NCBI GenBank assembly: GCA_944391575.1
Contig: CALXUC010000003.1
Coordinates: 16,459-80,458, forward strand
Origin: an uncultured Clostridia bacterium
GTDB lineage: Bacteria > Bacillota > Clostridia > TANB77 > CAG-508
Reading direction: 5' to 3'
DNA length: 64,000 nt
This document shows, in pieces, positions 1,069 to 32,863 of the stretch. How positions within the stretch are numbered: position 1 is the first letter of the stretch; every line of letters begins with the position of its first letter. Under the pieces are notes generated by a model. That model was not told where the DNA came from. It saw only the letters and a list, made by a program, of their open reading frames with translations, and did not search any database. The position numbers and the translations under genes are program-made.

Positions 1069-3486
1069 TTAATTTTCTTCCATATTTAATTCCACATTAT
1101 ACATTTCAAAATTTTCATCTATTATTTTGCTATCTAAATTTTCTATAAATAATGTTGCTCTAAAGTCTTTTATTGATGCGTCTATAGCGTCTTTTAATTC
1201 TTTACTAACTCCGATAGATAAATTTTTAATAGGTGTTTTTAATGATACATTGCTATTTGTTTTTGCTCCTCTTGCTTGGCTTATAATTTCTATCATTTGT
1301 TCACCATATTTTATCTCATTTTCAAAGTTAAAGTTTAATGGCTCTATTACTGTTGTATGAATTGAATTGTTATTGTGGTATAATTCTTGGAATATTTCTT
1401 CTGTTATAAATGGGAAGAATATACTAAAGTCTTGTAATAATTTATATAGTAATGTATAAACTGTTTTTTGTCCACTATATCTTGGTATGTCTCCAAATTC
1501 TTCTGGTCTATATAATCTATGTTTTACTATTTCTATATAATTATCACAGAATTCCCAGAAGAATTTTTCCAATATATTTAATGCTAAACCTACTTCATAT
1601 TCTTCTAAATAATTTATAAATTGTTTTTCCATTTCTTGGAAACGTCCTAATATCCACTTATCTACATATTCATAATCACTAAATTCTTTATCTTCGTAAT
1701 CTTGTAAATGCATTTCTATAAATTTTGATACGTTCCAAATTTTATTTACTAATTTTTTACCACGTAAAAAAGTTTCTTCACTATATACTATATCTGAACC
1801 TAATCTTCCTGTTCCTGCCCAATATCTTACTACATCTGCTGAATATTGTTTTATTAAATCCATTGGTTCGTGTTTGCTATTGCCTTTGCTTTTACTTATT
1901 TTTTCACCTTTTCCTGCCATAGCAAATCCTGAAATCATTACATTATCCCATGGTCTTTGACCAAAGTGATAAAAGCTTTTTACTATTGTATAGAAGTCCC
2001 ATGTTCTTATAATTTCACTTGCATTTGTTCTTAAGCTCATAGGTTTTAATATATCTTCATAATTTTCTTCTTCACCATATCTCATATTTATAAGTGGTGT
2101 TACTGATGATGTTGCCCAAGTATCCATTATATCTGTTTCTGGCATAAATTCTGTTCCACCACATTTTGGACATTTATCGCATTTTGGTGAGTCTACTAGA
2201 GGATTTACTGGTAAATCTTCTTTTTTTGCAAATATAGGTTCTCCACATTTTTTACAGTACCATACTGGGAATGGTACTCCAAAATATCTTTGTCTTGATA
2301 TACACCAGTCCCAAGCTATGTTATTAACCCATTCATCGTATCTAGCTTTCATGTGTGCTGGATGCCATTTTATCTCATTTCCTATTTTCAAGAAATCTTC
2401 TTTATGGCTCATTGTATCTATGAACCATTGATTCATTACAGCATATTCGACTTCTTTACCACATCTTTCATGTGTTTGAACTTCATGCTCTAATTCTTCA
2501 ATTTTTACAACAAATCCGCCTTCTTGTAAATCTTCAATTATATTTTTTCTAGCTTCTTTTATTTTTAATCCACCATACTTTGGAACTGAATCTACTATTT
2601 TTCCGTCACTAGTAAATATATATTTTAGTGGTAAATTATACTTTTTCCACCACTCTATATCAGTTTGATCTCCAAAAGTACAGCACATTACTATTCCTGT
2701 ACCTTTATCTATAGCGACTTTTTCGTCTCCCATTATAGGAACTTCCACATCTATTACTGGGATATGCGCTGTTTTACCTATTAAGTGTTTATGCTTTTCA
2801 TCATTTGGATTAACAAATACACTTACTATTGCAGGTAACAATTCTGGTCTTGTTGTTGCTATTGTAAATTCTTCATTATCTTCTACTGTTTTAAAATTTA
2901 TATAATTAAATGTTGTTTTTATTGTTTTAGTTTCAAGTTCTGCTTGTGCTATTGATGTTAAACATTCATTACACCATAACGCAGGACTTTCTTTATGGTA
3001 ACAATGTCCTTTTTCTACTAAATCTAAAAAAGATTTTTGACTTATTTTTATTGTAGATGGTGCAACTGTTTTGTAATGTATATTCCAATCTGTGCTTACG
3101 CCCATTCTACTAAATAATTCTTGAAATTCTTCTTCATATTTATCTGTTATTTCATAACATAATTTTGAAAATTCTTCTCTACCAATTTCATGTGCTCTTT
3201 TACCTTGCTCTTTTTCTACTAATCTTTCACTAGGTAAGCCATTATCGTCAAATCCAAAAGGATAGAATATATTATATCCCCTTAATCTTTTATATCTTGC
3301 TAACATTTCTGTTTGTGTATATGAGAAAACGTGTCCTATATGGATTCTTCCACTTACTGTTGGTGGTGGTGTGTCTATTGAGAATACTTCTTTTCCGTTT
3401 CTTTTAAATTCATATATTTTATTTTCTTTCCAATAATCCATCCATTTTATTTCTTTTTCTTCTGCATTATACTTTTTGTCTAACAT
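1069..3486 (-). CDS. valS: class Ia aminoacyl-tRNA synthetase, most likely valine--tRNA ligase (short form)
   Basis: 805-aa ORF with PPPTVSGRIHIGHV (HIGH), KISKSKGN (KMSKS) and Cys knuckles CKKCG / CPKCG. The Val-versus-Ile/Leu call rests on remembered family signatures, not a search. Confidence 0.75.
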   Translation of the reverse strand: MLDKKYNAEEKEIKWMDYWKENKIYEFKRNGKEVFSIDTPPPTVSGRIHIGHVFSYTQTEMLARYKRLRGYNIFYPFGFDDNGLPSERLVEKEQGKRAHEIGREEFSKLCYEITDKYEEEFQELFSRMGVSTDWNIHYKTVAPSTIKISQKSFLDLVEKGHCYHKESPALWCNECLTSIAQAELETKTIKTTFNYINFKTVEDNEEFTIATTRPELLPAIVSVFVNPNDEKHKHLIGKTAHIPVIDVEVPIMGDEKVAIDKGTGIVMCCTFGDQTDIEWWKKYNLPLKYIFTSDGKIVDSVPKYGGLKIKEARKNIIEDLQEGGFVVKIEELEHEVQTHERCGKEVEYAVMNQWFIDTMSHKEDFLKIGNEIKWHPAHMKARYDEWVNNIAWDWCISRQRYFGVPFPVWYCKKCGEPIFAKKEDLPVNPLVDSPKCDKCPKCGGTEFMPETDIMDTWATSSVTPLINMRYGEEENYEDILKPMSLRTNASEIIRTWDFYTIVKSFYHFGQRPWDNVMISGFAMAGKGEKISKSKGNSKHEPMDLIKQYSADVVRYWAGTGRLGSDIVYSEETFLRGKKLVNKIWNVSKFIEMHLQDYEDKEFSDYEYVDKWILGRFQEMEKQFINYLEEYEVGLALNILEKFFWEFCDNYIEIVKHRLYRPEEFGDIPRYSGQKTVYTLLYKLLQDFSIFFPFITEEIFQELYHNNNSIHTTVIEPLNFNFENEIKYGEQMIEIISQARGAKTNSNVSLKTPIKNLSIGVSKELKDAIDASIKDFRATLFIENLDSKIIDENFEMYNVELNMEEN

Positions 3487-3518
3487 ATTATATACTTCCT
3501 TTCTGATTATTATTATTA

Positions 3519-5216
3519 TTATTTGTTATTTAAAGTTCTTTTATATAAAGAGCGACTCGGAAACCGTACATAAACAGAAGATTTGTCTGCGGGTCCGTGA
3601 TCGCGGTAAGCAACCGGTCTCTCTTTAGCTAAACTTCCATAATGTCCGCCACGACTAACACGATAAGAACTGTATTTTTCCATTGTTCTTTCAAATACGT
3701 TTCCTGCTAAATCATATATATTTTTTTGTCTAAACCCTTCTCTTGCACCACATACGTCAGGTTCAGTTGAATTTGCTATATCATCACTACCGCTTGTTCC
3801 ATTAAAATTTCCCATTCCAGTTGAATCTGTTGCATAAGTATCATATCCTGTTTCGCCCACATCATATGCTCCTATAAATTTTAATGCCGTATCCCACTGT
3901 ACTCCGTATATTAATGTTGATGTCACACCATAATTTTTATCATTACTTGGATACATACTTCTTGCTATTGTTACCATTCCATTGCCTGGAGTTGAATCAT
4001 TATTACTTGTTCCCCACTGTATATAATTCCACACATATGCTCCTTTTTTAGATACAGGTTTGTACGTTCCATTTCCATAAGTTGTAGTAGAATTACTCGT
4101 TAATTTTTGCTGTGGCATATCTTCTGATATTCCAGCCTCATACCTCGCAATATAAAATCCTCCATTTTTTGTTACACTTGTTGTTATTTCTGTTGGTACT
4201 GTTTCTGAGCAACTAGAAAGTGCTAATCCTTTTCCAAAGTCATGCCTTTCAAATTTTACTATTTCTCCATCTACTGGCACCCATACAAATTCATTTCCTA
4301 TACTATTTCCGTTTTCGTCTATTTCATCTGTTATTACTAATCCATTTTTATATCCATCTGAACTCTTCCAAACTGCATTATTTTCATCTACTGCATAAAA
4401 TCCTGCTGGTATTAATGGATTATTATATGTTCCTGTTGTTTTTCCATCTATTGTTAAATTAATTGGTAATTTTTGTATTGTAACCTTTAATCCGTTATTA
4501 GTAGCGTATATTTCATTACCATTTCTATCAACTATTACCATGCTCACTGTATAAGTTTCATATTGATTTAAATTATCAAATGTGTATGAATTTTGAGTTT
4601 GTGCTTCCGTCCATGGTTCATTATCTATTTTAAATTTATAGTGAGCGATGTTAGCATTATTTATATCAGCATAAACTTTTAATTGTATATTTGGTACATC
4701 ATCAGTTACTGTAGCTGTTACTTCTGTTTTTAATTCATAACTTGGTACATTAAAACTAACTCCAGTTACATCTTGACTTACATCGCTAATACCATAATAA
4801 GTCTCGCCACTTACTGTTATTCCTGGATAATAATAAATATTATGACTTTCTTCATTTACGATATAATAATTATTAGATGTGTTATTTATACCATAAGTTA
4901 AATTCATATCATCTAAAAGACTTAAATCTAATTTATAATATACTTCTCCGTCATTCTCATTTCTGCTATCTCCTAATAAAGTTACCATATCAAAAGTAAT
5001 TTCTTCACTTACTGGCAATTCTTTGTTTTTTTCATAGTATACATCTGTTTTTTCTCTTACAATTTGTAAGTCATTATAAAATGTTTTTAGAGTTTTAACA
5101 TCACCATAACTGGATACACTTATTCCTATAGTTGTTATTAATAATGCCATAACAACAACAGTTAAAACTAACACAGATAAAGTTATACCCTTTTCATTTA
5201 CAATTTTTTTATTCAT
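3519..5216 (-). CDS. pilin-like N-terminus fused to Ig/Fn3-like and FGE-sulfatase (SUMF1-like) domains
   Basis: 565 aa. The N-terminus NEKG|ITLSVLVLTVVVMALLI resembles a prepilin leader plus helix. The C-terminus carries YDLAGNVFE and RVSRGGHYG, matching the GNVWEW and RGGS motifs of the FGE-sulfatase fold. RBS is AAGGAAGG. Confidence 0.55.
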   Translation of the reverse strand: MNKKIVNEKGITLSVLVLTVVVMALLITTIGISVSSYGDVKTLKTFYNDLQIVREKTDVYYEKNKELPVSEEITFDMVTLLGDSRNENDGEVYYKLDLSLLDDMNLTYGINNTSNNYYIVNEESHNIYYYPGITVSGETYYGISDVSQDVTGVSFNVPSYELKTEVTATVTDDVPNIQLKVYADINNANIAHYKFKIDNEPWTEAQTQNSYTFDNLNQYETYTVSMVIVDRNGNEIYATNNGLKVTIQKLPINLTIDGKTTGTYNNPLIPAGFYAVDENNAVWKSSDGYKNGLVITDEIDENGNSIGNEFVWVPVDGEIVKFERHDFGKGLALSSCSETVPTEITTSVTKNGGFYIARYEAGISEDMPQQKLTSNSTTTYGNGTYKPVSKKGAYVWNYIQWGTSNNDSTPGNGMVTIARSMYPSNDKNYGVTSTLIYGVQWDTALKFIGAYDVGETGYDTYATDSTGMGNFNGTSGSDDIANSTEPDVCGAREGFRQKNIYDLAGNVFERTMEKYSSYRVSRGGHYGSLAKERPVAYRDHGPADKSSVYVRFPSRSLYKRTLNNK

Positions 5217-5332
5217 ATGTTCCTTCCTTATTATATCAATTTTTATTAAAATGTCTAATTATAAAATCTATTATATTTTACTATATAATGTGAAAAAAAG
5301 CAAGATTTTACTCCTGCTTTTGTTAAAATTAA

Positions 5333-5473
5333 GTAACAATTCAGCGTGTACTTGCTAAAGGCTTGATATATAGCTATTTTTAGTCAAAACATATCTAGGG
5401 TAACACAATCCGGGTCTTGACTTGCAAATAGCTATATATCAAGCTTTTATTTAAATATCAGCTGAGTTGTTAC
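5333..5473 (+). mobile_element. Nested-palindrome MITE-like element, type A, full copy with TSD
   Basis: TIRs GTAACAATTCAGC / GCTGAGTTGTTAC. Inner stem GCTTGATATATAGCTATTT / AAATAGCTATATATCAAGC. Core ACACAATCCGGGTCTTGA. A perfect 8-bp duplication AAAATTAA sits at 5325-5332 and 5474-5481. Confidence 0.9.
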
Positions 5474-5481
5474 AAAATTAA

Positions 5482-6435
5482 TTAATTTAATCCCACTAAT
5501 TTCATTTTTAAATTAGATAAATCTGTTACTGATATTTTACCATCGCCATTTATATCGCTTGCTGCAATTTTATTTTCCACGAAATTATAATTTTTAACAA
5601 TATATCCTTTTAATAAAGATAAGTCTAATGCAGATAAATTCCCATCTTCGCTAATATCTCCAGTTACTATTATTATATAATTCCTATTATTAACACTTAA
5701 CTCCATACTTGTTGCTAACTTTTCATCTTCTGATACTACTTCTTCACCTCTATATACTTTTATTTCACTTTCACTTTTATTTGTAATATTACTTAATAAT
5801 TCTTTTACAGTTGTATTTGCTGTAATATTTTTAATCATACTTTTTTCTATTTTATATTTTTCAGATTCTATCACATCTGGATCATTAACTACCTTATGCA
5901 CAGTATCAAGTACTAAATCACCATTGCAAGCTATCTCTCCTAAAACTGCTTGTCTTTCATCTGCTGTTGTTGCTGAAAGGAAATCTTCAGATAAGCTTAC
6001 CATTATTAAATCAAATAATGAATATTCTGAATTTAATAAAAAGTACTCAATTCCTGGATATTTCACTTCATCAGTAGTTCCTGTTACTTTTAATTTTAAT
6101 TCTACTGCAAATTCTTGTCCAGGTTCAATGTTACCAAACGTAACTGTAATATAAAAATCAGATTTTTCATAGTTTTTATTATTTATACTTTCAAATTGTG
6201 TTCCTGTAGGTAGCGCAATTATCAATCTTGAACTTGAAAATTTTATATCTGATATATTTTTTAATGTTATTTTATATGTTATAATATCCCCACTTTTAAC
6301 TGCCGTAGTTGCTGGTGGATCTGCTACCATTGTAGCTTCAATATATTTTTGGGACTCTGCAAAATCTTTCTTACTCATACATAGAATTAATAATATAAAT
6401 ATAAAAAATATTAATATAATCGTTTTTTTCTTCAT
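5482..6435 (-). CDS. secreted protein with DUF11/CARDB-like repeat and C-terminal type I dockerin-like module
   Basis: 317 aa with a Sec signal peptide (MKKKTIILIFFIFILLILC). It carries two Ca-binding dockerin-like segments, GDISEDGNLSALDLSLLKGYIV and SDINGDGKISVTDLSNLKMKLVG. Confidence 0.6.
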   Translation of the reverse strand: MKKKTIILIFFIFILLILCMSKKDFAESQKYIEATMVADPPATTAVKSGDIITYKITLKNISDIKFSSSRLIIALPTGTQFESINNKNYEKSDFYITVTFGNIEPGQEFAVELKLKVTGTTDEVKYPGIEYFLLNSEYSLFDLIMVSLSEDFLSATTADERQAVLGEIACNGDLVLDTVHKVVNDPDVIESEKYKIEKSMIKNITANTTVKELLSNITNKSESEIKVYRGEEVVSEDEKLATSMELSVNNRNYIIIVTGDISEDGNLSALDLSLLKGYIVKNYNFVENKIAASDINGDGKISVTDLSNLKMKLVGLN

Positions 6436-21813: not shown

Positions 21814-23160
21814 TTAGAAGCCTCCTGCTGAAAATAAGAAGTCTCCCATGTATACTTGTATAATTGGAACTAATACTACTACAACGAAGAAAATTAAGAA
21901 TATACCAACTATAAGATATACTACTTCAGGTAAAACTTTCATAATCTTAGACATTAGTGCGTCTATATCTATCTTCATGTATTCTAACAATTTTTCCAAC
22001 ATAAGTGTTAAGTCAGTTTGCATACCTATTCTTAACATTTCAGTTATCATCGATGATGATAATCCTGATTTTTCAAAAGGTTCAATCCAAGATTTTCCCA
22101 TTAATATATTGTTAGCAGAAGTTTCTATTATTGATAGTAAAACTAAATTATGAACTACGTTCTTGCTAACTTCTAATGCATCTTGTATTCTTATACCACT
22201 TTTTACATTTAATAATACAGCTTGCATAAATCTTGAAAAATCTATTGCATATATTAATTTACCAAATATTGGCATTTTATACTTAAAATAATTAAATTGA
22301 TATTTTCCATGCTCTGTATTAATATAGAATATAATTACACCTACAATTACAGCTATTAGGATAACTGGTACATACCAGAAATGAATTATTGTTTCTAATA
22401 CTCCTTGGAACCATAATGATATTGCTGGTAATTGTTTAGTTGAACCTACACTTTCATAAACACCTTGAATCATTGGAATTGCAAATAAGGTTCCTAGAAC
22501 TAATAATACAAGAATTCCAACAAATTGTACTATATTAGGTATTAATATTCCTCTTAATTTTTTATTTAAAGCTGCTGTATCTTCAAGGTACTCAATAGCT
22601 TGATATAAAGTTTCTGTTAGTGAACCTGATAATTCACCACTTTTTATCATACTTATATATATAGAAGGGAATATTCCTTCGTAATATTCTAATGTTGCAT
22701 ATATACTTTCACCTGCTTCTACACCTGCCAGTACATCTTCGAGTATTTCTTTTAATGTTAAGTTTTCAGTATTTTCTATTACAGTAGAAAGTGCATGAAT
22801 ATTATTAAAGTTAGCTTTTTTCAAAAGATAAAAATTTTGCGTAAAAATTATTATATCTCTTATTGTTACTTTTTCAGTAAGCGCTAACTTACCATATACT
22901 CTCTCTTTTAATGTAAGTTTTGCTGTTCCATTTCCTAATCTTGCATTTATGTTTGCATTCTTTACAATTTCCGTCATACCAGATGTATTTTTTTTAGGTC
23001 TTCTGGCTGTATTTTTTCTTTTAGCTGTTTGCATTACAGATATAGGTATTAAGCCATTTCTTTTTAATTTTTTTAACAAGCTAATTCTACTCATATCTTC
23101 AACTTTATTCTTTACGACTTTACCATTTTTAGTAACAGCTTTATAAAAATATAGTGGCAT
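21814..23160 (-). CDS. pilC: type IV pilus platform protein PilC (GspF family)
   Basis: 448 aa with two T2SSF repeats and three TM segments. It lies downstream of pilB and pilT. Confidence 0.85.
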   Translation of the reverse strand: MPLYFYKAVTKNGKVVKNKVEDMSRISLLKKLKRNGLIPISVMQTAKRKNTARRPKKNTSGMTEIVKNANINARLGNGTAKLTLKERVYGKLALTEKVTIRDIIIFTQNFYLLKKANFNNIHALSTVIENTENLTLKEILEDVLAGVEAGESIYATLEYYEGIFPSIYISMIKSGELSGSLTETLYQAIEYLEDTAALNKKLRGILIPNIVQFVGILVLLVLGTLFAIPMIQGVYESVGSTKQLPAISLWFQGVLETIIHFWYVPVILIAVIVGVIIFYINTEHGKYQFNYFKYKMPIFGKLIYAIDFSRFMQAVLLNVKSGIRIQDALEVSKNVVHNLVLLSIIETSANNILMGKSWIEPFEKSGLSSSMITEMLRIGMQTDLTLMLEKLLEYMKIDIDALMSKIMKVLPEVVYLIVGIFLIFFVVVVLVPIIQVYMGDFLFSAGGF

Positions 23161-23184
23161 TACTTAACCTCCTTTTGCACTTTT

Positions 23185-24276
23185 CTATTGAATTCTTAAT
23201 TGCATTATTGTTCTATTTAAAATTTCTTGGTTCTTATCTTCTATTTGTGCTTTTGCTTGTTCTAAAGAAATTTTACCAGCCACAAATAAATTCGCAATAG
23301 AATTTATTAAACTTATATTTCCCTTATCTATATTAGATTGAATAGCATCCTCAATTTCAGATGTACTGAATTTTTCTTTTCTTATATATCCAGCCATTAC
23401 ATTATCAACTACCATAACTTCTGGTACTAATATTAAATTTCCATCTTGCGCTCTTAATAATCTTTGTGATATAACTAATTTTAATATAGAAGATAATAAA
23501 TATTTTACAGTTATTTGATCTTGTATGTCATAGAAGTTAATAACTCTATCTATAGTTTCTGCACATGATTTTGTATGAACAGTTCCAATAACTAAATGTC
23601 CTGATTCTGCCATTTCTATTGCAGCATCCATAGTTTCTCTATCTCTAACCTCACCAATAACTAGTATATCACAGTCCTCTCTTAAAGAGTTTTTAACACC
23701 ATCGCTAAAAGACAAAGAGTCTCTACCTAATCCTACTTCTTTTTGAACTATAATTGATTTTTTTGATACGTGTTTAAACTCAACTGGGTTCTCTAATGTT
23801 AATATTTTTTTATTTTCTCTTTCATTTATATCATTTATCAATGCATTTAATGTTGTTGTTTTACCTGAATTTGTTTTACCAGTTACTAATAACAAGCCTT
23901 GTTTTTCTCTAGTCATTCTTCTAACTATTTCAGGAACACCTAAATCTTCAAATTTAGGTAAAGTATTTTTTATTATTCTCAATGTAAAAATTGGTACATC
24001 GCTAGACATAGAAATATTTACCCTTATACGAATATCTTTATACTCAGCTGATGCATCTAGCTTCCTAGTTTCTCTAAAAACTTTATCTTTTTCTAAATTA
24101 CCTCTTACAAAGTAATCATATAAATCAAACATATCTTCAGTACTTAATACTGGGAAATCATCAGCTGACACTAATTCTCTTTTTATTCTTAATGTTGGTT
24201 TCAATTTAGATATTAAGTGTATATCTGATGCATCTTCCATGATAGCTTTATCTAATAATTTATCTATCTCTATCAT
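23185..24276 (-). CDS. pilT: type IV pilus retraction ATPase PilT
   Basis: 363 aa with Walker A GKTNSGKTTT, the LVIGEVRD Asp box and the HLVIGTVHT His box. Confidence 0.85.
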   Translation of the reverse strand: MIEIDKLLDKAIMEDASDIHLISKLKPTLRIKRELVSADDFPVLSTEDMFDLYDYFVRGNLEKDKVFRETRKLDASAEYKDIRIRVNISMSSDVPIFTLRIIKNTLPKFEDLGVPEIVRRMTREKQGLLLVTGKTNSGKTTTLNALINDINERENKKILTLENPVEFKHVSKKSIIVQKEVGLGRDSLSFSDGVKNSLREDCDILVIGEVRDRETMDAAIEMAESGHLVIGTVHTKSCAETIDRVINFYDIQDQITVKYLLSSILKLVISQRLLRAQDGNLILVPEVMVVDNVMAGYIRKEKFSTSEIEDAIQSNIDKGNISLINSIANLFVAGKISLEQAKAQIEDKNQEILNRTIMQLRIQ

Positions 24277-24290
24277 AATATTCCTCCTAA

Positions 24291-25919
24291 TTAATATAGC
24301 ATTAACTTTTTATTTAGTTCCTCTAATGTAATTACTCCATTTACAACTTTGTTTAAGCCGTCAATAAATAAAGGTTTGTAATTATGCTCTTTTGCAATTC
24401 GTTTTATCTCTAAACTTGATTTATTATTTGCAATAGCCTCTCTTATTTCTGGTGTCATTATTAACACCTCAAAAATTGCAATACGGTCATAATATCCTGT
24501 ATTATTACAATACTCGCAGCCTTTAACATCGTAAGTCTTTTTATTATTAAAATCAAATTGGATATTGTAATTTTTAACTAATTCATTTATTAAATATTTT
24601 TCTTCTTCTGTAAATTCTCTTTCTACTGCACATTTAGGACAAATTCTTCTAATTAATCTTTGTGAAATAGATGTTGCTACTGTACTTGCAATATCGTAAT
24701 TAGAAATGCCTAATTTTCTAAGTCTTGTTATAGCTTCTACAGAATCTATAGTATGAATTGTAGACAATACGTAGTGACCTGTTTGTCCTGCTTGCATTGC
24801 TATTTCAGCAGTTTCTTCATCTCTTATTTCACCTACTAAAATTATATCTGGGTCTTGTCTTAATACAGTCCTTAAAGAATCTGAAAAACTTACTTTTGCA
24901 TCAACTTCTATTTGGTTTAAACCTGGAATTCTTATTTCTACTGGATCCTCTATTGTTGTAACATTTATTTGAGGTTTATTTAAATAATCTATTATACTAT
25001 ATAATGTTGTTGTTTTACCTTCTCCGGTTGGAGCTGCTACAACTGTAATACTATTTCTTTTTTCAAAAGCATTTTTTACTAACTTTTCATCCTTCATAAA
25101 GCCTAAATCGAATATATTTTTAATGTTTGTATTTTTCTTTAATAATCTTAATACTATCTTCTCACCATATACATTTTTTTGTGATGAGGCACGAATATTA
25201 TAATCTGGATATAAAGTAATTCTTCCTTCTTGAGAATCTTGTTTTTCTTGGTGCATATTAGATATAGCCTTTAAACGTCCTATTAATTGTGCTTTTTTCT
25301 CATTTGGAATAGTAGTTATTACTAATAACTCTCCATCTATTCTGTATCTTATTCTTACTCCATCTTCAACTGGCTCAAAGTGGATATCACTTGCTCTTTT
25401 CTCCATCGCCATTTTTATAATACTATTAACTAAAGTAATAATATCTTTATTTACATTTATCACATCAACAGTATTTTCTGAAAAAGATTTTAAAATTTGC
25501 TCTATTATACTTTCAAAAGTCAAATATTTTTCCATTATTAAACCTTTATTTAATAATATTAAACGTACTGTTTCTACAGTTCTAGGATTTGAACTGTCAG
25601 CAAAACAAACTTTTATTCTGCTTCCTACTATTTCAAAAGGTATAGCTTTATATTTTTCTGCTATATCTAAAGATATATACTCTAAAAAGTCTATTTTAAT
25701 ATCGCTTGATTTTAATAATATTGATTTTTCGCCTAAAATTTCTCCTATAGAATCTATCAATTTTTGTGGGTCACAAATATTTAGAATATATAATATATCT
25801 CCCATTTTTTTATCTGGATTTTCTTTTTGATAATTTAAAGCTACTTGTATATCATCTTCTGTTATTAAACCTTTTTTAACTAATTCTATTCCTATTGGAA
25901 TATTTTTTCTCATTTCCAT
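24291..25919 (-). CDS. pilB: type IV pilus assembly ATPase PilB (GspE family)
   Basis: 542 aa with Walker A APTGEGKTTT, ILVGEIRD, the tetracysteine CPKC…CEYC and an N-terminal GSPII-like domain. Confidence 0.9.
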   Translation of the reverse strand: MEMRKNIPIGIELVKKGLITEDDIQVALNYQKENPDKKMGDILYILNICDPQKLIDSIGEILGEKSILLKSSDIKIDFLEYISLDIAEKYKAIPFEIVGSRIKVCFADSSNPRTVETVRLILLNKGLIMEKYLTFESIIEQILKSFSENTVDVINVNKDIITLVNSIIKMAMEKRASDIHFEPVEDGVRIRYRIDGELLVITTIPNEKKAQLIGRLKAISNMHQEKQDSQEGRITLYPDYNIRASSQKNVYGEKIVLRLLKKNTNIKNIFDLGFMKDEKLVKNAFEKRNSITVVAAPTGEGKTTTLYSIIDYLNKPQINVTTIEDPVEIRIPGLNQIEVDAKVSFSDSLRTVLRQDPDIILVGEIRDEETAEIAMQAGQTGHYVLSTIHTIDSVEAITRLRKLGISNYDIASTVATSISQRLIRRICPKCAVEREFTEEEKYLINELVKNYNIQFDFNNKKTYDVKGCEYCNNTGYYDRIAIFEVLIMTPEIREAIANNKSSLEIKRIAKEHNYKPLFIDGLNKVVNGVITLEELNKKLMLY

Positions 25920-25936
25920 TTCTTACACCTCAACTT

Positions 25937-26365
25937 TTAAATATTATTATTTAATTTTAAAGTATTAATCTTTATGTTTTTTGTTAAATCTCCATCCTGA
26001 TATTCTATATTAAGCTCTAGTATTTTTATTAAATTTTCTTTAGATTCGTTACCTTCTAATTTGTTATAATCTTTTATACTTAATTTTGCAGTATAATTAT
26101 CTGATAACTCAACTCCTAATAAGTTTTTTCCTTCATATTCACCTTGTTCTAATTTAGAATCATAATAATTAAGTAATTTTGCGTTTTCTAATATTTCTAC
26201 TGCATAATTTGTTGCCATAGATGTCCTATGCATTGATAAATTTGTATTGTATATATTTATTACTAAAAGTATAACTAAACCTGAAAGAATTATAAAAATA
26301 CCTATACCTAAAATTGCATCTGCAGCTACATAGCCTTTGTTAGATTTTATTTTTCTACAATGCAT
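25937..26365 (-). CDS. minor pilin-like protein
   Basis: 142 aa. The N-terminus KSNKG|YVAADAILGIGIFIILSGLVILLV has Gly at -1, an aromatic residue at +1 and Asp at +5, followed by a hydrophobic helix. It sits between pilD and pilB. Confidence 0.45.
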   Translation of the reverse strand: MHCRKIKSNKGYVAADAILGIGIFIILSGLVILLVINIYNTNLSMHRTSMATNYAVEILENAKLLNYYDSKLEQGEYEGKNLLGVELSDNYTAKLSIKDYNKLEGNESKENLIKILELNIEYQDGDLTKNIKINTLKLNNNI

Positions 26366-26404
26366 AGTTTCATTCCTTTCTTATATATTTTAATTTTTTA
26401 ATCT

Positions 26405-27154
26405 TTATATAATAAAATTACTTCCTATAAATATGCTTATAAAATATATTACATAATAAAAAGCTAGTGGAATTTCTGTTTTAGTAATTCTGCTATGGAT
26501 AGCTCCTGTTAATACAGCTAAAATAGTAGCAAATAATATAATGTATGAATTTGCAAATATTGCTGTAAGCATTACTAATATTATAAAATATATTATATAC
26601 TTATTTTCATCACTTTTTATTAAAAATTTATTTATTGCAAAAAAAACGATTGAAGCTATTAAAATTATTATATTATATAACACATCTAGTTTTAATAAAT
26701 ACATATATATTACATATATTGCAGTAAATATTATTCCAAAAAATATAATTGATTTTTCTATTTTCCTATTTTCTTTATCTATTCCTGCCAATATAATTAA
26801 CGATATAAAAAATATAGCAATAAACGAAATTACTACTAAATCGTTTATATTAACATTATAAAAATCTATATTGAAAGAAAGGAAAAATAGCAGAAAAATT
26901 ATACCCGATAATAATTCTAATATTAAATATCTTGCTCTAATCTTTTCACCACAATGACTACATCTGCCTCTTAAAAATATATAACTAAAAATTGGTATTA
27001 AGTCTTTTAACACTAATCTTTCTTTACAATTTGGGCAATATGAATGTTTTATAAGTATATCTTCCTTTATAGGAATGCGATATACTGCTAAACTTGCGAA
27101 ACTCCCTATAAAAGCTCCCATTATAAATATTATTACATATATAATTACTTCCAT
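26405..27154 (-). CDS. pilD: prepilin peptidase (A24 family) PilD
   Basis: 249 aa, polytopic, with the Cys motif CPNC…CSHCG in the first cytoplasmic loop and a GIDKEN-type Asp region. Confidence 0.85.
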   Translation of the reverse strand: MEVIIYVIIFIMGAFIGSFASLAVYRIPIKEDILIKHSYCPNCKERLVLKDLIPIFSYIFLRGRCSHCGEKIRARYLILELLSGIIFLLFFLSFNIDFYNVNINDLVVISFIAIFFISLIILAGIDKENRKIEKSIIFFGIIFTAIYVIYMYLLKLDVLYNIIILIASIVFFAINKFLIKSDENKYIIYFIILVMLTAIFANSYIILFATILAVLTGAIHSRITKTEIPLAFYYVIYFISIFIGSNFII

Positions 27155-27292
27155 TCTTACTCCTTAAGTATATAGATCTAATATATATTTTCTCATAAAA
27201 AACATATATTAAACCTATATTTTATTTAAAATAAAGGCATATAGAATTTTATATGCCCTTACTTATAAAATTACCTAAAACTAATTAATCAA

Positions 27293-27520
27293 CTATGGAT
27301 TATTTTGTATATATATTTGTTGATCAACATAGTTCATTAAGTTTTGTAATAATTGATTTTCATTTTCGCTTTCATGTTCATATATGTCTGCTGCATTTCT
27401 TGTTCTGCTGAATAAGCCATCACCATCTACAACTGCTGCTATAGCAACACCTGCTAAAATTAACATTACAACAACTGTAATTACTAATGCAACTAATGTT
27501 ATACCTTTTTGTCCTTTCAT
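27293..27520 (-). CDS. very short type IV pilin-like protein (helix-only)
   Basis: 75 aa: MKGQKG|ITLVALVITVVVMLILAGVAIAAV plus a ~40-aa acidic tail. Strong RBS AAGGAGGG. It occupies the major-pilin position in the cluster, and Ala replaces the usual Glu5. Confidence 0.6.
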   Translation of the reverse strand: MKGQKGITLVALVITVVVMLILAGVAIAAVVDGDGLFSRTRNAADIYEHESENENQLLQNLMNYVDQQIYIQNNP

Positions 27521-27584
27521 TAAAAATACCCTCCTTTAATTAAATTAAATTTGTATATATTTATAAAATAAATATTACCTAAAG

Positions 27585-28004
27585 TTATTTACCAGGTGTG
27601 GTTTCTGTAAGTTGTCCGCCACCTGAACTATTTGTGTTTTGATTATCTCCAGCTCCATCAGAACCTGAAGAATTATTATTTCCTTCTGTATTTCCATTTG
27701 TATTTCCAGTACCTTCAGAATAATCTGAGAATGGGTCTATTTTACCTGGATTATACTTATCAGTTTCTTGATATCTATCTAAATCATCTTCTTCTATAGT
27801 GTAAGTTACTAATACTTCTTGTTCTGCTTCATCTTCTAAAGTTTGTTCTAATTCCTCTTCTAATTTCTCTGGTACTGTATATTCAACCTTACCAGGAACT
27901 ACTTTATTAGAAGGTAATTGTTCATAAAAGATTATTCCAAATACTAGTGCTATTAACGCTACTAACAATATATAGATAAAAATTTCTCTTATAACTTTTA
28001 ACAT
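27585..28004 (-). CDS. pilus-cluster membrane-anchored protein, acidic/low-complexity ectodomain
   Basis: 139 aa with one N-terminal TM segment, an E/D-rich segment and a G/N/T/S-rich tail. No family recognised. Confidence 0.35.
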   Translation of the reverse strand: MLKVIREIFIYILLVALIALVFGIIFYEQLPSNKVVPGKVEYTVPEKLEEELEQTLEDEAEQEVLVTYTIEEDDLDRYQETDKYNPGKIDPFSDYSEGTGNTNGNTEGNNNSSGSDGAGDNQNTNSSGGGQLTETTPGK

Positions 28005-28024
28005 AATACATTACCCTCCTTCTT

Positions 28025-28720
28025 TTATTCTTCTACAACATTCGTTGTATTTCCTGTAGTATTTCCAACTGTGTTTTCAACTGTATTTTCAGTAGTTTCT
28101 TCTGTTACATCATTTATTGCTGATGCGGCAACATTTGATATGTTAACATTAATATCTTTAACAGTAAATGTAGATTTTAGATTTGATTTTTCTACATCTG
28201 GTACCATATTAAAATTTTCTATTTTAAATTCTAATTCTGGATCATCTTCTAAATCATATATAAAATCTGTTATTCCTACATAACTACCATTTACAGTAAA
28301 TCTTAAATCTTTTACCTCTGCTATACCGCTAGAACTATTTGTAATTTGCAAATTAACTTTCACATTGTGTTCATCAGCGTAATTTCCTATTGAAATCCAC
28401 AACTTTTCTACTTCATATTTTTCTTTAGTTAATGCTTCTCGTATATCTTCTGTACTGCTTTGTGCTAAAACTCTTTCATATTTTTCTCTTTGAGTTGCAA
28501 CTTCTTCTAAAGCTGTATTTAATTTATCATTTTCTGTATTAAATTCTACTTGAGTTAAGTCAGTTGCTTCCTCTATCTTCATATCTACTTGATCATTTAA
28601 AGTCTGTATTTCTGATACGCCTAAAACTTTAAATTCGCCTATATCAAAGCCATCTCGTATAAAGAAAAATGCTAACACTAAAATTAATATAGCAAGTACT
28701 GCAAATAAAAACTTTCTCAT
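28025..28720 (-). CDS. PilO-like pilus assembly protein
   Basis: 231 aa with an N-terminal TM segment followed by coiled coil. It overlaps the pilM/N stop by 4 nt. Confidence 0.45.
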   Translation of the reverse strand: MRKFLFAVLAILILVLAFFFIRDGFDIGEFKVLGVSEIQTLNDQVDMKIEEATDLTQVEFNTENDKLNTALEEVATQREKYERVLAQSSTEDIREALTKEKYEVEKLWISIGNYADEHNVKVNLQITNSSSGIAEVKDLRFTVNGSYVGITDFIYDLEDDPELEFKIENFNMVPDVEKSNLKSTFTVKDINVNISNVAASAINDVTEETTENTVENTVGNTTGNTTNVVEE

Positions 28721-30369
28721 GGCAATTCTCCTTCTATAGTTACTTTTACAATATTATCCAATTTTACACTACTGTCACTTGATACATTTTTTAATATATT
28801 ATTAGTTTTTAATATAGCTTTAAAATACCCTAAATCATCATAATTTTGTGATTCTGCATTAATTACTATTTTTCCATCAACATTATTCTCTATAGAAGTT
28901 AATTTAACTTCTTTTGGAATAACTGACATTATTCTATTTAATAAAATTGGTATTGCTTTTTTATACTTATTATCTTCAACAACTTGATTTGTAAGACTTT
29001 CTAATTTTGCAATACGTTGTGAATATTCTAAAGATTTGGCTTTAACTGTTTCTGTATTTTCTTGTATAGTTTTAATTTCCTTATTAGTCTCATCTATTAC
29101 TTCATCAGCTTCTGCAATTTTTTTAGTCATTTCACTATTTAAATACACACTTCCAGCTGCAAAAACAGACATACACAATATACCAGTTACACCAACTCTA
29201 ATAGCACTCATTTCAAAAGGCTTTATTGGACCTTTTAATGATAAAGCTGGTTTTAAATCTACTCCACCACCATTTTTAAATCTATTTGCTAATTCTTTAA
29301 AGCTTGGTAATTTAACATCAGAATTTAATTTCATTTGCAATGTTTTAGTAGACATTGTTGTTTTTAAATATGTGTTTTTGAACATTGCTTCTTTATATCT
29401 TTTTTGTAATCCTTGCATTGCAACTGCTACTGCTGAATTCACTTCTATATAATCTTTTATATTTATATTATTAGCAAATTTATCTATAAAAAATGGTGAT
29501 AATATTTCGCATTTATATGTCGGCATATATTCTTGAAAATATAAGTCTATATTATTAATTAAAGCCGCAGAACCAGTAATATAAATTTTTCTAACTGTTA
29601 ATAATTGATTTTCAAATTTATTTTTTACTTCTGATACAATTTTATATAATACTGGCATTATCTCTTTCAAGTATACATTTTCTACTAATTGCATATCACT
29701 AGTTTCCATAGTGTAGATTGTTGTATTTTTACATATCTCGTAAGCTTTTTGTATTGAATTTTCTTTTTCATTTATTTGTTCTATTATGTCTTTCATACCT
29801 AAATTAATAACTTCAATATCATTAATTTCATTATTAACCATAGTAGTTATTTTGGTATCTTCTTCTATATTTACTATTGCGTAATTTTCTTTTTCTTTTT
29901 TTGGCAAATTAGACAATGCTACTGGTAATGGAACTAAATGCCCTACCCTAAAAGCTTGCAATTTTTGCATTTTTGAAGTTATATCAGCTCTTTCAACAGA
30001 TATATATATAGCTTTTGATTTTTCCTTATTCATATAATCTTCCGCCAATATATATCTAGAATCTAATGTTTTGTAACTATACCCTTTTTCATCACACAAT
30101 AATTCAAATTCAGAATTTAACGCTTCTTCTATATCTTTTTTCTTAAGCAAGCTAAATACAGAAAAATAATTATACATTTCCCCTGTTAAATTCATACAAA
30201 TTGGAATATTATGACTATCTGTTTCTTCTAAAATTTCTTTTAAAGCTTTTTCTAGGTCATCATTAAATTTAATTCCAAATGCTTCGATTTTAATATCTTC
30301 TTTTTCAATTCTAACTTTAGCATATTTAATTAAGTTATTTTCCGTTGAAATACCTAAACAAGTCGCCAT
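28717..30369 (-). CDS. pilM: PilM (actin-like ATPase fold) fused to a TM + PilN-like C-terminal region
   Basis: 550 aa. The N-terminal ~330 aa are PilM/FtsA-like, with a TM segment (VTGILCMSVFAAGSVYL) and then coiled coil. It is the first gene of the cluster. Confidence 0.6.
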   Translation of the reverse strand: MATCLGISTENNLIKYAKVRIEKEDIKIEAFGIKFNDDLEKALKEILEETDSHNIPICMNLTGEMYNYFSVFSLLKKKDIEEALNSEFELLCDEKGYSYKTLDSRYILAEDYMNKEKSKAIYISVERADITSKMQKLQAFRVGHLVPLPVALSNLPKKEKENYAIVNIEEDTKITTMVNNEINDIEVINLGMKDIIEQINEKENSIQKAYEICKNTTIYTMETSDMQLVENVYLKEIMPVLYKIVSEVKNKFENQLLTVRKIYITGSAALINNIDLYFQEYMPTYKCEILSPFFIDKFANNINIKDYIEVNSAVAVAMQGLQKRYKEAMFKNTYLKTTMSTKTLQMKLNSDVKLPSFKELANRFKNGGGVDLKPALSLKGPIKPFEMSAIRVGVTGILCMSVFAAGSVYLNSEMTKKIAEADEVIDETNKEIKTIQENTETVKAKSLEYSQRIAKLESLTNQVVEDNKYKKAIPILLNRIMSVIPKEVKLTSIENNVDGKIVINAESQNYDDLGYFKAILKTNNILKNVSSDSSVKLDNIVKVTIEGELP

Positions 30370-30898: not shown

Positions 30899-31348
30899 AT
30901 GAATTTTATGGAAAATAAAATTACTCCTCAAGAGTATGAGGAATATGTAGAAAAGAAATCACCTAATTCGCCTATTTTAAAAAATTGTTTTAATGCTTTT
31001 TGGGTAGGTGGTTTAATTTGTACTATAGGGCAATTTATTTTAGAATATTGCAAATATATCAACTTAGATACACAAATTTCATATACTGTTGTTTCTGTAG
31101 TATTAATATTTTTGAGTGCTTTTTTAACTGCATTAAATATTTTTAATAAAATAGGTAAATTCGCAGGAGCAGGTTCGCTCGTTCCTATTACTGGTTTTGC
31201 TAATTCTATTGTCTCTCCTGCTATGGAGTACAAATCTGAAGGATATGTTTTAGGAGTAGGTGCTAAGATGTTTACTGTAGCGGGTCCGGTTTTGGTGTAT
31301 GGCATTTCTACATCAGTAATTGTTGGAATTATCTATTCATTTTTTTAG
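30899..31348 (+). CDS. spoVAC: stage V sporulation protein AC
   Basis: LKNCFNAFWVGGLICTIGQ and TGFANSIVSPAMEYKSEGY are typical SpoVAC strings. An alternative ATG lies at 30908. Confidence 0.9.
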   Translation: MNFMENKITPQEYEEYVEKKSPNSPILKNCFNAFWVGGLICTIGQFILEYCKYINLDTQISYTVVSVVLIFLSAFLTALNIFNKIGKFAGAGSLVPITGFANSIVSPAMEYKSEGYVLGVGAKMFTVAGPVLVYGISTSVIVGIIYSFF

Positions 31349-31417
31349 ATTTTTTAATTATATATTGTTTGTAAATATAATTAATAATAAATAAAAATAT
31401 TTAAGAAAGGATTTCAT

Positions 31418-32428
31418 ATGAAAAAAATTGGTTCTCAAACTATTCAATTAGAAAATAAAGTATATATTTTAAGTTCTGCATCTATTGTTGGTCCTAAAGA
31501 AAGTGAAGGGCCTCTAGCAAAACACTTTGACTTATGTTTAGATGATGAGTTTTGGGGTGAAAAAACTTGGGAAAAAGCTGAAAGCAAAATTATAAAGGAA
31601 TGTGTAAATATGGTTGTTGCTAAATCTGGTTTAGCTAGCCAAGATATAGATTTATGTTTTGCTGGTGATTTGTTAAACCAATGCATATCTTCTTGCTTTG
31701 GATTACGTTCTTTAAACATCCCATTTATAGGCGTTTTTGGAGCTTGTTCAACTTTTATTGAAGCCATTTCTTTAGGTTCTGTTTTTATTGCTGGTAATGC
31801 TGCTAAAAATGTTGTTTGTGCTACTTCAAGTCACTTTTGTAGTGCTGAAAAACAATTTAGATACCCTTTAGAGTTAGGAAATCAAAGGCCACCTACAGCT
31901 CAATGGACTGTTACTGGTAGTGGCAGTGTTGTTTTATCTACTTCTTGTGATAATAGCCCTTATGTTACTTATGTTACTCCCGGTAAGATTGTAGACATGG
32001 GTATTAAAGATGCTAACAACATGGGAGCTGCAATGGCAATGTCAGCTGTAGATACTATAATAACTCACTTCAAAGATACTGGCAGAACTCCGGATTTTTA
32101 TGATTTAATATTAACTGGAGATTTAGGTTATATAGGTAAAGAAATTGTTATAGAAAATTGTAAAAAAGAAGGATACGACTTATCAAATAATTATAACGAC
32201 TGCGGTGTTTTAATCTTTGATAAGGATAAACAAGATACACATTCTGGCGGTTCCGGTTGTGCATGCATTGCAACAGTTTTTTCTGGATATATCTATAAAT
32301 TATTAAAAGAGAAAGAAATTAAAAAAGTTTTGCTTGTTGCAACAGGTGCATTAACTAATGCAACAACATCTGCTCAAGGTGAAAGTATTCCGGGAATTGC
32401 ACACGCTATTAGTGTAGAGTTTGAATAA
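31418..32428 (+). CDS. spoVAD: stage V sporulation protein AD (thiolase-like fold)
   Basis: 336 aa with SSASIVGPKESEGPL and GACSTFIEA. It sits between spoVAC and spoVAE. Confidence 0.9.
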   Translation: MKKIGSQTIQLENKVYILSSASIVGPKESEGPLAKHFDLCLDDEFWGEKTWEKAESKIIKECVNMVVAKSGLASQDIDLCFAGDLLNQCISSCFGLRSLNIPFIGVFGACSTFIEAISLGSVFIAGNAAKNVVCATSSHFCSAEKQFRYPLELGNQRPPTAQWTVTGSGSVVLSTSCDNSPYVTYVTPGKIVDMGIKDANNMGAAMAMSAVDTIITHFKDTGRTPDFYDLILTGDLGYIGKEIVIENCKKEGYDLSNNYNDCGVLIFDKDKQDTHSGGSGCACIATVFSGYIYKLLKEKEIKKVLLVATGALTNATTSAQGESIPGIAHAISVEFE

Positions 32429-32476
32429 AATATTCTAGTCAAAGTTTGCAATTTAAAGAAAGGATTGATATTAAGA

Positions 32477-32863
32477 ATGGATTTTATAAATAGTATAGAT
32501 TGGTCTTTAGTTTTAAAATGTTTTATTACTGGAGGATTAATGTGTATAATAGGACAAATTTTAATAGATAAAACTAAATTAACTCCCGCTAGAGTTCTTG
32601 TTATATTTGTAACTACAGGAGGTATTTTAGGCGCTCTTGGAATATATCAACATCTAATAGATTTTGCAGGTGCTGGCGCTACCGTTCCTTTAACAGGTTT
32701 TGGTAACTTGCTTGCAAAAGGTGCTATTCAAGAAGTTCAAACTAATGGACTAATAGGTGCATTTATAGGTGGTACTAAAGCAGCAGCTGGTGGTATTGCA
32801 GCAGCAATTTTCTTTGGTTATATTGCTTCACTTATTTCTAAGCCTAAGATTAAAAAGCAATAA
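32477..32863 (+). CDS. spoVAE: stage V sporulation protein AE (AEB type)
   Basis: ITGGLMCIIGQILID, KLTPARVL and PLTGFGN are present. I prefer the ATG at 32477; the ORF track starts at a TTG at 32465. Confidence 0.85.
   Translation: MDFINSIDWSLVLKCFITGGLMCIIGQILIDKTKLTPARVLVIFVTTGGILGALGIYQHLIDFAGAGATVPLTGFGNLLAKGAIQEVQTNGLIGAFIGGTKAAAGGIAAAIFFGYIASLISKPKIKKQ

Follow-up and report, generated by a model that had tools for sequence, protein, structure and literature searches.

The 64,000-nucleotide stretch of DNA analysed here (hereafter the window), which belongs to the 1.84-Mb genome of an uncultured Clostridia bacterium, holds a gene whose product begins like a type IV pilin and ends like a formylglycine-generating enzyme (FGE), and the question raised by this locus is what such a protein is and what it may do at the cell surface. 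The open reading frame (ORF) at 3519..5216 of the minus strand, as called by an earlier first-pass annotation, is genuine: it starts with ATG, encodes 565 aa (P0001) and has 933 homologues at E<=1e-3, 8000 candidates having been scored. Its product is most likely a non-enzymatic modular type IV pilin adhesin, and we consider it probable that it represents a modular type IV pilin-like surface protein with a variable tip of the diversity-generating retroelement (DGR) type, which is frozen in this genome and for which processing, display on a pilus and ligand binding would be expected.

Structure prediction assigned residues 246-565 (3522..4481, minus strand) to a domain with the C-type-lectin fold of the FGE subclass, whereby the model (residues 245-565, built from 118 sequences) reached a pLDDT of 90.2 and a pTM of 0.91. 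The top Foldseek match in the PDB was TvpA of Treponema denticola (2y3c, E 7.6e-5), followed by FGEs, SUMF2, EgtB, PvdO, PorK and TaqVP, and VIA-align yielded Z scores of 16.1 for TaqVP (rmsd 3.5 A, 210 residues), 15.1 for PvdO, 14.5 for TvpA, 13.2 for Mtd and 12.6-13.6 for FGEs and SUMF2 (rmsd 3.2-3.9 A over 177-188 residues). The domain contains the motifs GNVFE and RVSRGG, as noticed earlier, family profiles reach SUMF2 (E 1.2e-3 and 3.1e-3) and PorK/GldK, three relatives whose last strand is in frame pass the PF03781 cut-off of 23.3 bits with 25.2-27.9 bits, and a precomputed PF03781 match exists for about a quarter of the best 120 of the 933 homologues. The 565-aa protein itself does not match PF03781, neither at E<=1 nor at E<=10 and in neither of two tail frames, and this is the profile on which the first-pass annotation had let its FGE-sulfatase claim depend. 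The profile assignment thus fell with this check; the predicted FGE fold is supported by the structure model (Z 13-16) and by the in-frame relatives, and with it stands the proposed architecture of leader, Ig-like spacer and FGE-type fold. A +1 step at a CGG codon near the 3' end had been expected to reveal a Pfam FGE match, yet none appeared; in the AlphaFold model the last strand is that of the annotated frame (RSLYK, pLDDT ~62-77), the underlying alignment mixing both tail types.

The likeness to FGE, SUMF1 and SUMF2 (PF03781), which comprises the fold (Z ~13 to genuine FGEs) and the YDxxGNV.EW, RGG and GFR motifs, could be taken to indicate that an FGE-like enzyme is displayed on or secreted through the pilus system. 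This reading is hardly tenable. Unlike those proteins, the window copy has no Pfam match and appears to lack the conserved Cys pair, and its active-site-equivalent segment is hypervariable. There is no Cys after residue 491, none within the segment after RGG and no invariant Cys in alignment A2, whereby the positions of C336 and C341 of human FGE (residue numbers from PDB titles) are taken by us to lie after RGG, a correspondence that is approximate and made without residue-level alignment to FGE. The best fold matches are moreover non-enzymatic DGR variable proteins, and one of them, TvpA, is reported in a passage of Wu et al. 2018 (PMC5758913) to be without FGE activity. The enzymatic half of the earlier proposal is accordingly unlikely, and the domain is considered further as that of a DGR variable protein.

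What had been overlooked is that the RVSRGGHYG motif starts a DGR variable region (VR), that the gene belongs to a six-copy family of close paralogues which is DGR-diversified in relatives, and that the last strand lies out of frame. The VR equivalent comprises ~134 nt at the 3' end of the gene (3547..3680, minus strand) and overlies the stretch that is templated by the template repeats (TRs) of two related loci, L065 and L075. Its composition is 46% GC and 25% A, as compared to 30% GC and 42% A in the rest of the gene and 27% GC in the genome. Identity of homologues to the window protein amounts to 52-83% in the framework (residues 245-512) vs 12-35% in the core (525-550), as determined for the first 24 alignment rows after the query, and the variable stretch covers ~26 residues between RGG and the last strand. 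A C-type-lectin-fold domain with a C-terminal variable segment, as is typical of DGR variable proteins, is hence accompanied by an adenine-mutagenesis footprint (A-depleted, GC-rich, with variability confined to the VR), which is strong in the paralogues on contigs C1, C50 and C6, where NNC-rich cores hold a third-position C in 19/27, 18/26 and 12/25 codons, and weak in the window copy. The syntenic orthologue of a very close relative (locus L002) carries a wholly different and longer VR, the identities of its neighbours being 97% for pnp, 94% for GT2 and 79% for a dockerin protein, from which it follows that the VR was rewritten after the two lineages split.

Complete DGRs of the corresponding kind were identified in relatives. 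Self-comparison of 76 related loci, coming from metagenome-assembled genomes (MAGs) of uncultured gut Clostridia, recovered a TR/VR pair of 134 bp with 25 mismatches in L065 and one with 23 mismatches in L075, 96% of the mismatches being located at template adenines in each pair; two further flagged pairs were rejected as short palindromic or contig-end matches. The L065 cassette consists of a pilin-leader target, a MutS-like ORF (MutS_I, 29.7 bits), bAvd (62.1 bits) and a reverse transcriptase (RT) with IGNYTSQ and YMDD motifs (RVT_1, 69.9 bits), followed by the TR, which templates ...NRVNRGGNYNNTGSNNPASNRNNNNPANSNDNIGFRLTL, i.e., the very stretch that is variable in the window protein. When 200 other genomes from the taxonomic family of the window were compared, 112 of them, in 39 of 50 genera, proved to have RTs of the L065 type, and a TR/VR pair is present at 15 of 30 further RT loci. 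In these relatives a DGR of the MSL+Avd+RT architecture copies its adenine-rich TR into the 3' segment of the target with adenine-specific errors, and these errors would randomise the exposed binding residues.

The carrier of this domain resembles a pilin. The N-terminus, MNKKIVNEKG|ITLSVLVLTVVVMALLITTIG, consists of a short basic leader (5187..5216, minus strand) with an invariant final Gly and a putative prepilin-peptidase site after G10, followed by a hydrophobic alpha1-N segment of ~20 residues (5124..5186, minus strand), which is the arrangement that characterises class III leaders. As claimed by the first-pass annotation, the leader is of the same class as that of a short pilin encoded at 27293..27520 (minus strand, 75 aa), both proteins having the G-I-T-L...T..VVM pattern in common, and in 16 aligned relatives of both architecture classes G10, T12, L13, L16, T19, M23 and L26 are invariant. 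In five paralogues of ~400 aa the entire 75-aa pilin sequence forms the N-terminal module, to which a linker and a lectin-fold domain are attached, and family profiles weakly match geopilin domain 1 at the N-terminal pilin-module positions (E 0.025-0.06). The leader [KRNQ]G[IV]TL with its hydrophobic helix was found on 39 ORFs of the genome, the largest of which reach ~970 aa. In the window protein a helix extends over residues 10-64 in a low-confidence full-length model, and the beta-rich Ig/Fn3-like middle region proposed earlier was recovered as a confidently modelled beta-sandwich spacer (residues ~160-245, 4482..4739, minus strand; pLDDT 85-90), its fn3 and CBM87 Pfam matches being weak and below cut-off. 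A pilin module is hence joined via a linker to a functional module that is not pilus-specific, as in modular pilins.

The pilus cluster itself, 21814..30369 on the minus strand, is genuine as well and comprises PilC, a PilT-like protein, PilB, a pseudopilin-like ORF, a prepilin peptidase, the pilin and PilM/N/O-like ORFs, with Pfam matches for PilB (T2SSE, 1e-101), the PilT-like protein (T2SSE, 2.8e-41), PilC (T2SSF, 3.6e-25) and the prepilin peptidase at 26405-27154 (A24_N_bact, 7e-30). According to the mechanism proposed here, this peptidase would cleave the 565-aa protein after G10, the machinery at 21.8-30.4 kb would present it on the filament or at the filament tip, and the displayed domain would bind a ligand there. 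Display of a lectin-like domain through the type IV pilus machinery, as suggested by the first-pass annotation, remains the best reading, with the display step being predicted rather than seen.

Several findings weigh against a pilus-borne DGR variable protein. Classical type IV pilins follow the rule of a Glu at position 5 of the mature protein; here this residue is absent, being Val in the window protein and Ala in the family consensus ITLVALV, and it is missing throughout the leader-bearing proteins, whose N_methyl (PF07963) matches are sub-threshold or absent. The 75-aa pilin scores 20.6 bits and the relative P0029 17.8 bits at a cut-off of 21.2, and the 565-aa protein does not match N_methyl even at E<=10 or when read with a +1 step; besides PF03781, any NCBIfam family is likewise unmatched by it. 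The full-length AlphaFold model is poor (pLDDT 56, 16 sequences) and does not establish a pilin head domain. At the other end of the protein, the canonical GFR strand is replaced in the annotated frame, and the protein may be impaired. The window copy also has the weakest NNC footprint of the six family members (third-position C in 5/26 codons), and no TR for its VR was found in the window by sensitive BLAST or in the genome with all six VRs as queries, the latter search returning only paralogues and a 63-nt remnant on contig C37. A DGR-type RT (IGNxxSQ, [YF]MDD) was not detected in the genome either (PF00078; L065 RT as query, 0 matches); marker genes put the completeness of this MAG at 99.6%, but it consists of 84 contigs, and an element may have been left unbinned. 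The only RT in the genome is group-II-intron-like, with YADD and a maturase-like motif, and is split into two ORFs of 323 aa and 142 aa (L001, G000:C1:109136-112750) directly upstream of the paralogue at C1:108229-109521; a DGR in a genus-mate (G052) has a non-cognate TR, which belongs to another target class and is unlike the local VRs. Finally, the VR is unchanged across contigs from two other studies, differing at 3 positions in 353 nt without gaps in X5 (3534-3886) and at 0 positions in 90 nt in X20 (3534-3623), a comparison of contigs in which rare variants are not visible and in which many contigs break at paralogue-conserved stretches. These matches imply that the window sequence is not a single-assembly error and that its VR is not visibly diversifying. 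Because neither a DGR RT nor a template is present here and the same VR recurs in the other-study contigs, the window VR is, by its sequence, an orphan and frozen VR. The genome may have lost the retroelement, or the element was never assembled, and the window copy would represent a frozen specificity.

The missing Glu and the missing N_methyl match also bear on the question whether a pilus is involved at all. The leader could serve as a general export or anchor signal, cleaved or not, so that the protein would be a signal-anchored surface protein outside any pilus and would not take part in filament assembly. The sheer number of leader ORFs, 39 with several unrelated C-terminal domains in one genome, fits with this idea, as it is large for a single pilus. 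However, the leaders vary in length, yet the [KRNQ]-G-[IV]-T-L junction that follows them is strictly conserved, which speaks for a processing site, a prepilin peptidase and the full assembly machinery are encoded in the genome, five paralogues hold the whole pilin as their N-terminal module, and large modular pilins are documented in passages of PMC8179133. A surface protein anchored apart from pili is consequently an unlikely alternative, albeit one to be taken seriously, and a modular type IV pilin-like protein remains the preferred assignment.

An unexpected part of the findings concerns the end of the domain. The annotated frame of the window gene terminates in ...SSVYVRFPSRSLYKRTLNNK, and the canonical last strand GFRVALYIKEL with its stop codon is found in the +1 frame (3530..3565, minus strand), where it is almost identical to GFRVALYIKEV, the in-frame end in the L002 orthologue. 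A CGG codon, the sole one of the ORF, spans the frame junction in the annotated frame (3564..3566, minus strand), and the C-terminal peptides would read ...VRFRVALYIKEL or ...GFRVALYIKEL with a +1 step vs ...VRFPSRSLYKRTLNNK as annotated. This arrangement is common to all six local paralogues. Among 73 copies with a YDxAGN anchor motif (from the fetched loci and this genome), 69 were classified and 4 were not; 52 of the former are in frame, 17, coming from at least 8 genomes, are in +1, and none is in +2. All 17 have the offset at one site, with main-frame NNC codons, an extra base, one NNC codon and then GGN-TTY-CGN/AGA, and since one extra base precedes the last NNC codon and GGN, the annotated frame always reads CGG across the junction. 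In an alignment of 118 homologue clusters (excluding P0002, P0098 and P0101), 55 have a +1-type tail, 52 are in frame and 11 are different or truncated, at least 3 of which look like +1.

The offset can be traced to templates. TR-like segments were found in 23 of the 30 new RT loci, and the TRs of L098 and L102, both beside intact RTs, carry the offset. Genome G183 (L102) has a TR and two VRs that can be aligned over 137 nt with no gap, and both VRs are in +1, VR1 showing 27 mismatches with 24 at template adenines and VR2 28 mismatches with 19 at adenines; in its sister genome G143 (L104), TR and VR are both in frame. As two TRs carry the offset and the frame of the VR tracks that of its TR in 3/3 VRs, the +1 offset is template-encoded in relatives; for +1 copies, no cognate TR was found within 1.5 kb of RTs at the RT loci of five genomes (G001-G005). 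By analogy, the template that last wrote the window VR would have held one extra base just before the last beta-strand. In a quick maximum-likelihood tree of 68 copies, computed with the VR excluded and one copy of <200 aa dropped, the frame state requires 9 changes, at least 6 of them forced, vs 15.3 in shuffles, 0 of 500 of which were as low as 9. The +1 state fills one clade of 99% support (8/9 rows) and most of another (7/11). The offset is part of a family-wide architecture and is template-written.

One way to understand the offset is decay, whereby the DGR was lost or its template gained a base and the gene persists as a non-functional relic, a pseudogene with a frameshifted C-terminus that has not decayed yet. 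The out-of-frame canonical strand is in line with this, as are a local paralogue that stops right after the junction (RRL*), the RF* or RL* ends of 4 of the 17 +1 copies, the lack of RT and TR in the genome and a VR that is frozen between samples. The framework is, however, as well conserved as in any family member, as the window copy deviates at just one (1 of 92) of its highly conserved columns, which equals the median and places it at rank 54 of 118, and all 17 +1 copies retain an open frame of at least 255 aa upstream of the offset despite residing in AT-rich genomes. Of the 118 homologue clusters, moreover, 55 show the +1 state; DGRs whose RTs are intact write it, and in the quick tree it fills two deep clades instead of scattered tips. 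We therefore regard a mere relic as unlikely.

Alternatively, a programmed +1 ribosomal frameshift could restore ...FRVALYIKEL, which would involve a pause at the rare CGG or at the next codon (UCG, CCG or UAG) and slippage of tRNA-Phe from UUU to UUY. The junction reads CGG-UUU-Y in 14/17 +1 copies, a C directly precedes GGN in 17/17 of them vs 18/52 in-frame copies, and the Gly codon is GGT in 14/17 vs 25/52. CGG is the rarest codon (101 of 374,473; 0.27 per 1000), ARAGORN reported no tRNA-Arg(CCG), and differences in the terminal strand are mainly at third positions of the +1 frame, the annotated-frame tail beyond appearing unbiased (alignments by eye). Where the Arg codon is AGA, as is the case in four copies, the annotated frame always reads UUU-UAG or CUU-UAG, and these junctions resemble the prfB site. 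The prfB (RF2) +1 programmed frameshift site is CUU-UGA-C; one local paralogue has CGG-CUU-UAG-A at its junction and most others have CGG-UUU-Y followed by a rare codon or a stop. Such a resemblance arises by itself once G-F-R is read one base early. No upstream Shine-Dalgarno-like stimulator was shown and no stimulatory structure was found, no search aimed at one having been made. Against recoding stand the in-frame state of the syntenic orthologue of the very close relative (L002) and the alternation of the nearest orthologues between frame states: as lineages spend time in frame, the synonymous pattern of the +1 frame is explained without frameshifting. The C and GGT enrichments could derive from the template lineage, in-frame TRs also having ATC-GGT, the codon before CGG is hypervariable, and the tRNA set of the MAG is incomplete (37 tRNAs). 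Recoding at this site is hence quite unlikely.

A further reading, which we put forward with reserve as an improbable one, takes the template-written +1 junction (CGG-UUU-Y) to be a designed feature of the DGR family instead of damage, either decoded by frameshifting at a hungry codon or representing a reversible off or altered state. If true, the retroelement would govern, in addition to binding specificity, whether and how much intact adhesin is made. DGR biology would thereby gain a new layer, within a type IV pilus system whose pilin-borne binders are interchangeable and number in the dozens. The recurrent offset is either a very frequent off-switch for DGR targets or a case of recoding; for annotation it means that about half of the family will be mislabelled or overlooked by gene callers and Pfam.

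With regard to known systems, the gene belongs to established kinds, DGR variable proteins and modular pilins, the combination of which is uncommon. TvpA (2y3c) and TaqVP of Thermus aquaticus (5vf4) share the fold; what sets the window protein apart from them is its carrier, a leader and module of the type IV pilin class plus an Ig-like spacer, the +1 frame of its last strand, and a genome in which no DGR RT or TR was found. The location of the VR at the extreme C-terminus, from RGG to GFR, is that of category 'b' targets, and the MSL+Avd+RT cassettes of the relatives (L065) correspond to Architecture D, both as defined in parts of Wu et al. 2018 (PMC5758913), where TR-VR indels causing frameshifts are noted as well. 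A pilin carrier with a grafted binding module is likewise described for modular type IV pilins such as PilB (vWA) and PilC (lectin) of Streptococcus sanguinis in sections of Raynaud et al. 2021 (PMC8179133), whose Dataset S1 already catalogues the leader-plus-FGE architecture (IPR012902-IPR005532, 8 proteins) and in passages of which the FGE module is not discussed. In contrast to those pilins, the window protein is without Glu+5 and without a Pfam N_methyl match, the grafted module of its family is DGR-diversifiable, and 39 leader ORFs occur in one small genome. Diversification of a pilus-borne adhesin by a DGR in a gut bacterium is reported, in excerpts of the respective work (10.1101/2024.11.15.621889 / PMC11601372), for Bacteroides; there the pili are Type V and the host belongs to Bacteroidota, whereas the window system is of type IV and comes from Clostridia, and the terms 'type IV', 'Firmicutes', 'Clostridia', 'frameshift' and 'prepilin' do not occur in the available text of PMC11601372. 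A G-type pilin domain is listed among rare VR holders in a part of PMC11661182, putative pilin structures in DUF1566 targets are mentioned in a part of PMC6642488, and the main text of Roux et al. 2021 is without 'pilin', 'pilus' or 'pili'. Within the literature library searched, no account was found of a frame offset that recurs and is template-encoded, or of DGR targets carried on type IV pilins in Clostridia. A large family of pilin-borne, DGR-diversified lectin-fold proteins in small-genome gut Clostridia has received at most passing mention in the searchable papers. If confirmed, it would constitute a retroelement-driven repertoire of pilus adhesins and bear on attachment to hosts, particles, other cells and phages.

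In the gene neighbourhood, valS (1069-3486; tRNA-synt_1, E 6.7e-86) starts, as stated by the first-pass annotation, only 32 nt downstream of the gene (spacer 3487-3518), and no terminator-like site was found between the two. This adjacency carries no meaning, because in the one syntenic orthologous locus compared (L002) it is not conserved and spoIIAA-spoIIAB-sigF are found instead. The upstream MITE copy was likewise recovered: the palindromic repeat at 5333..5473 has 13-nt terminal inverted repeats, folds into a long hairpin of -27.9 kcal/mol and is abundant, with 301 BLAST matches in the genome, 20 of which lie on the window's contig. Between this repeat and the start codon, the best promoter-like site (5230..5257, minus strand; TAGACA-16-TG-TATAAT, 11/12, extended -10) is a consensus match only, the total of such sites not being above shuffles, and no T-box or other Rfam family was detected anywhere in the 64-kb window. 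The neighbouring ORF at 5482-6435 encodes a secreted protein of 317 aa that carries a type I dockerin at its C-terminus (E 3.5e-11) and also has a DUF11-like repeat, which scores below cut-off; the orthologue of this protein is syntenic in L002 with 79% identity.

Within the pilus cluster, the 75-aa protein is the putative major pilin, small as it is and without Glu+5, and a 142-aa ORF at 25937-26365, between PilB and the peptidase, has another type of leader (KG|YVAADAILG...). The cluster is flanked at 30899-32863 by ORFs that, to judge from their translations, may encode spore-related small membrane proteins and a SpoVAD-like protein. Leader ORFs elsewhere in the genome (G000) are exemplified by C19:282, C23:11883, C33:8559/13074/17483, C2:10463, C22:19402/23680, C39:359/12575 and C54:5597. 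Some of the other leader proteins have ~500-545 aa and end in ...SFRPVLVLL or similar, which is lectin-fold-like and possibly a DGR-type ending; six have ~950-977 aa and end in ...YEWVRCPSLEK or a close variant, and a further group ends in ...GNGSEGSPWTLTK. An ORF of >2005 aa that runs to the contig end (G000:C10:42989-49006) combines many Ig-like repeats with dockerin-like ones close to the N-terminus and encloses two FGE-like domains with in-frame GFRIALF ends.

Two observations concern traces of past events at family loci. The 63-nt segment at G000:C37:3267-3329 is a remnant of the 3' end of a family gene (...YRVALYIK*) and immediately precedes a gene with an N-terminal match to P0098, a chimeric homologue annotated with PF09820, which suggests a recombination or deletion scar as its possible origin. 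In a relative (L079/L088, G004:C2:49330-54172), a DGR RT of the L065 type is apparently interrupted right after YMDD (...YMDDSAPRMYNK*) and immediately followed by a high-scoring RT of 419 aa, possibly that of a group II intron, with an in-frame TR still being present at the locus.

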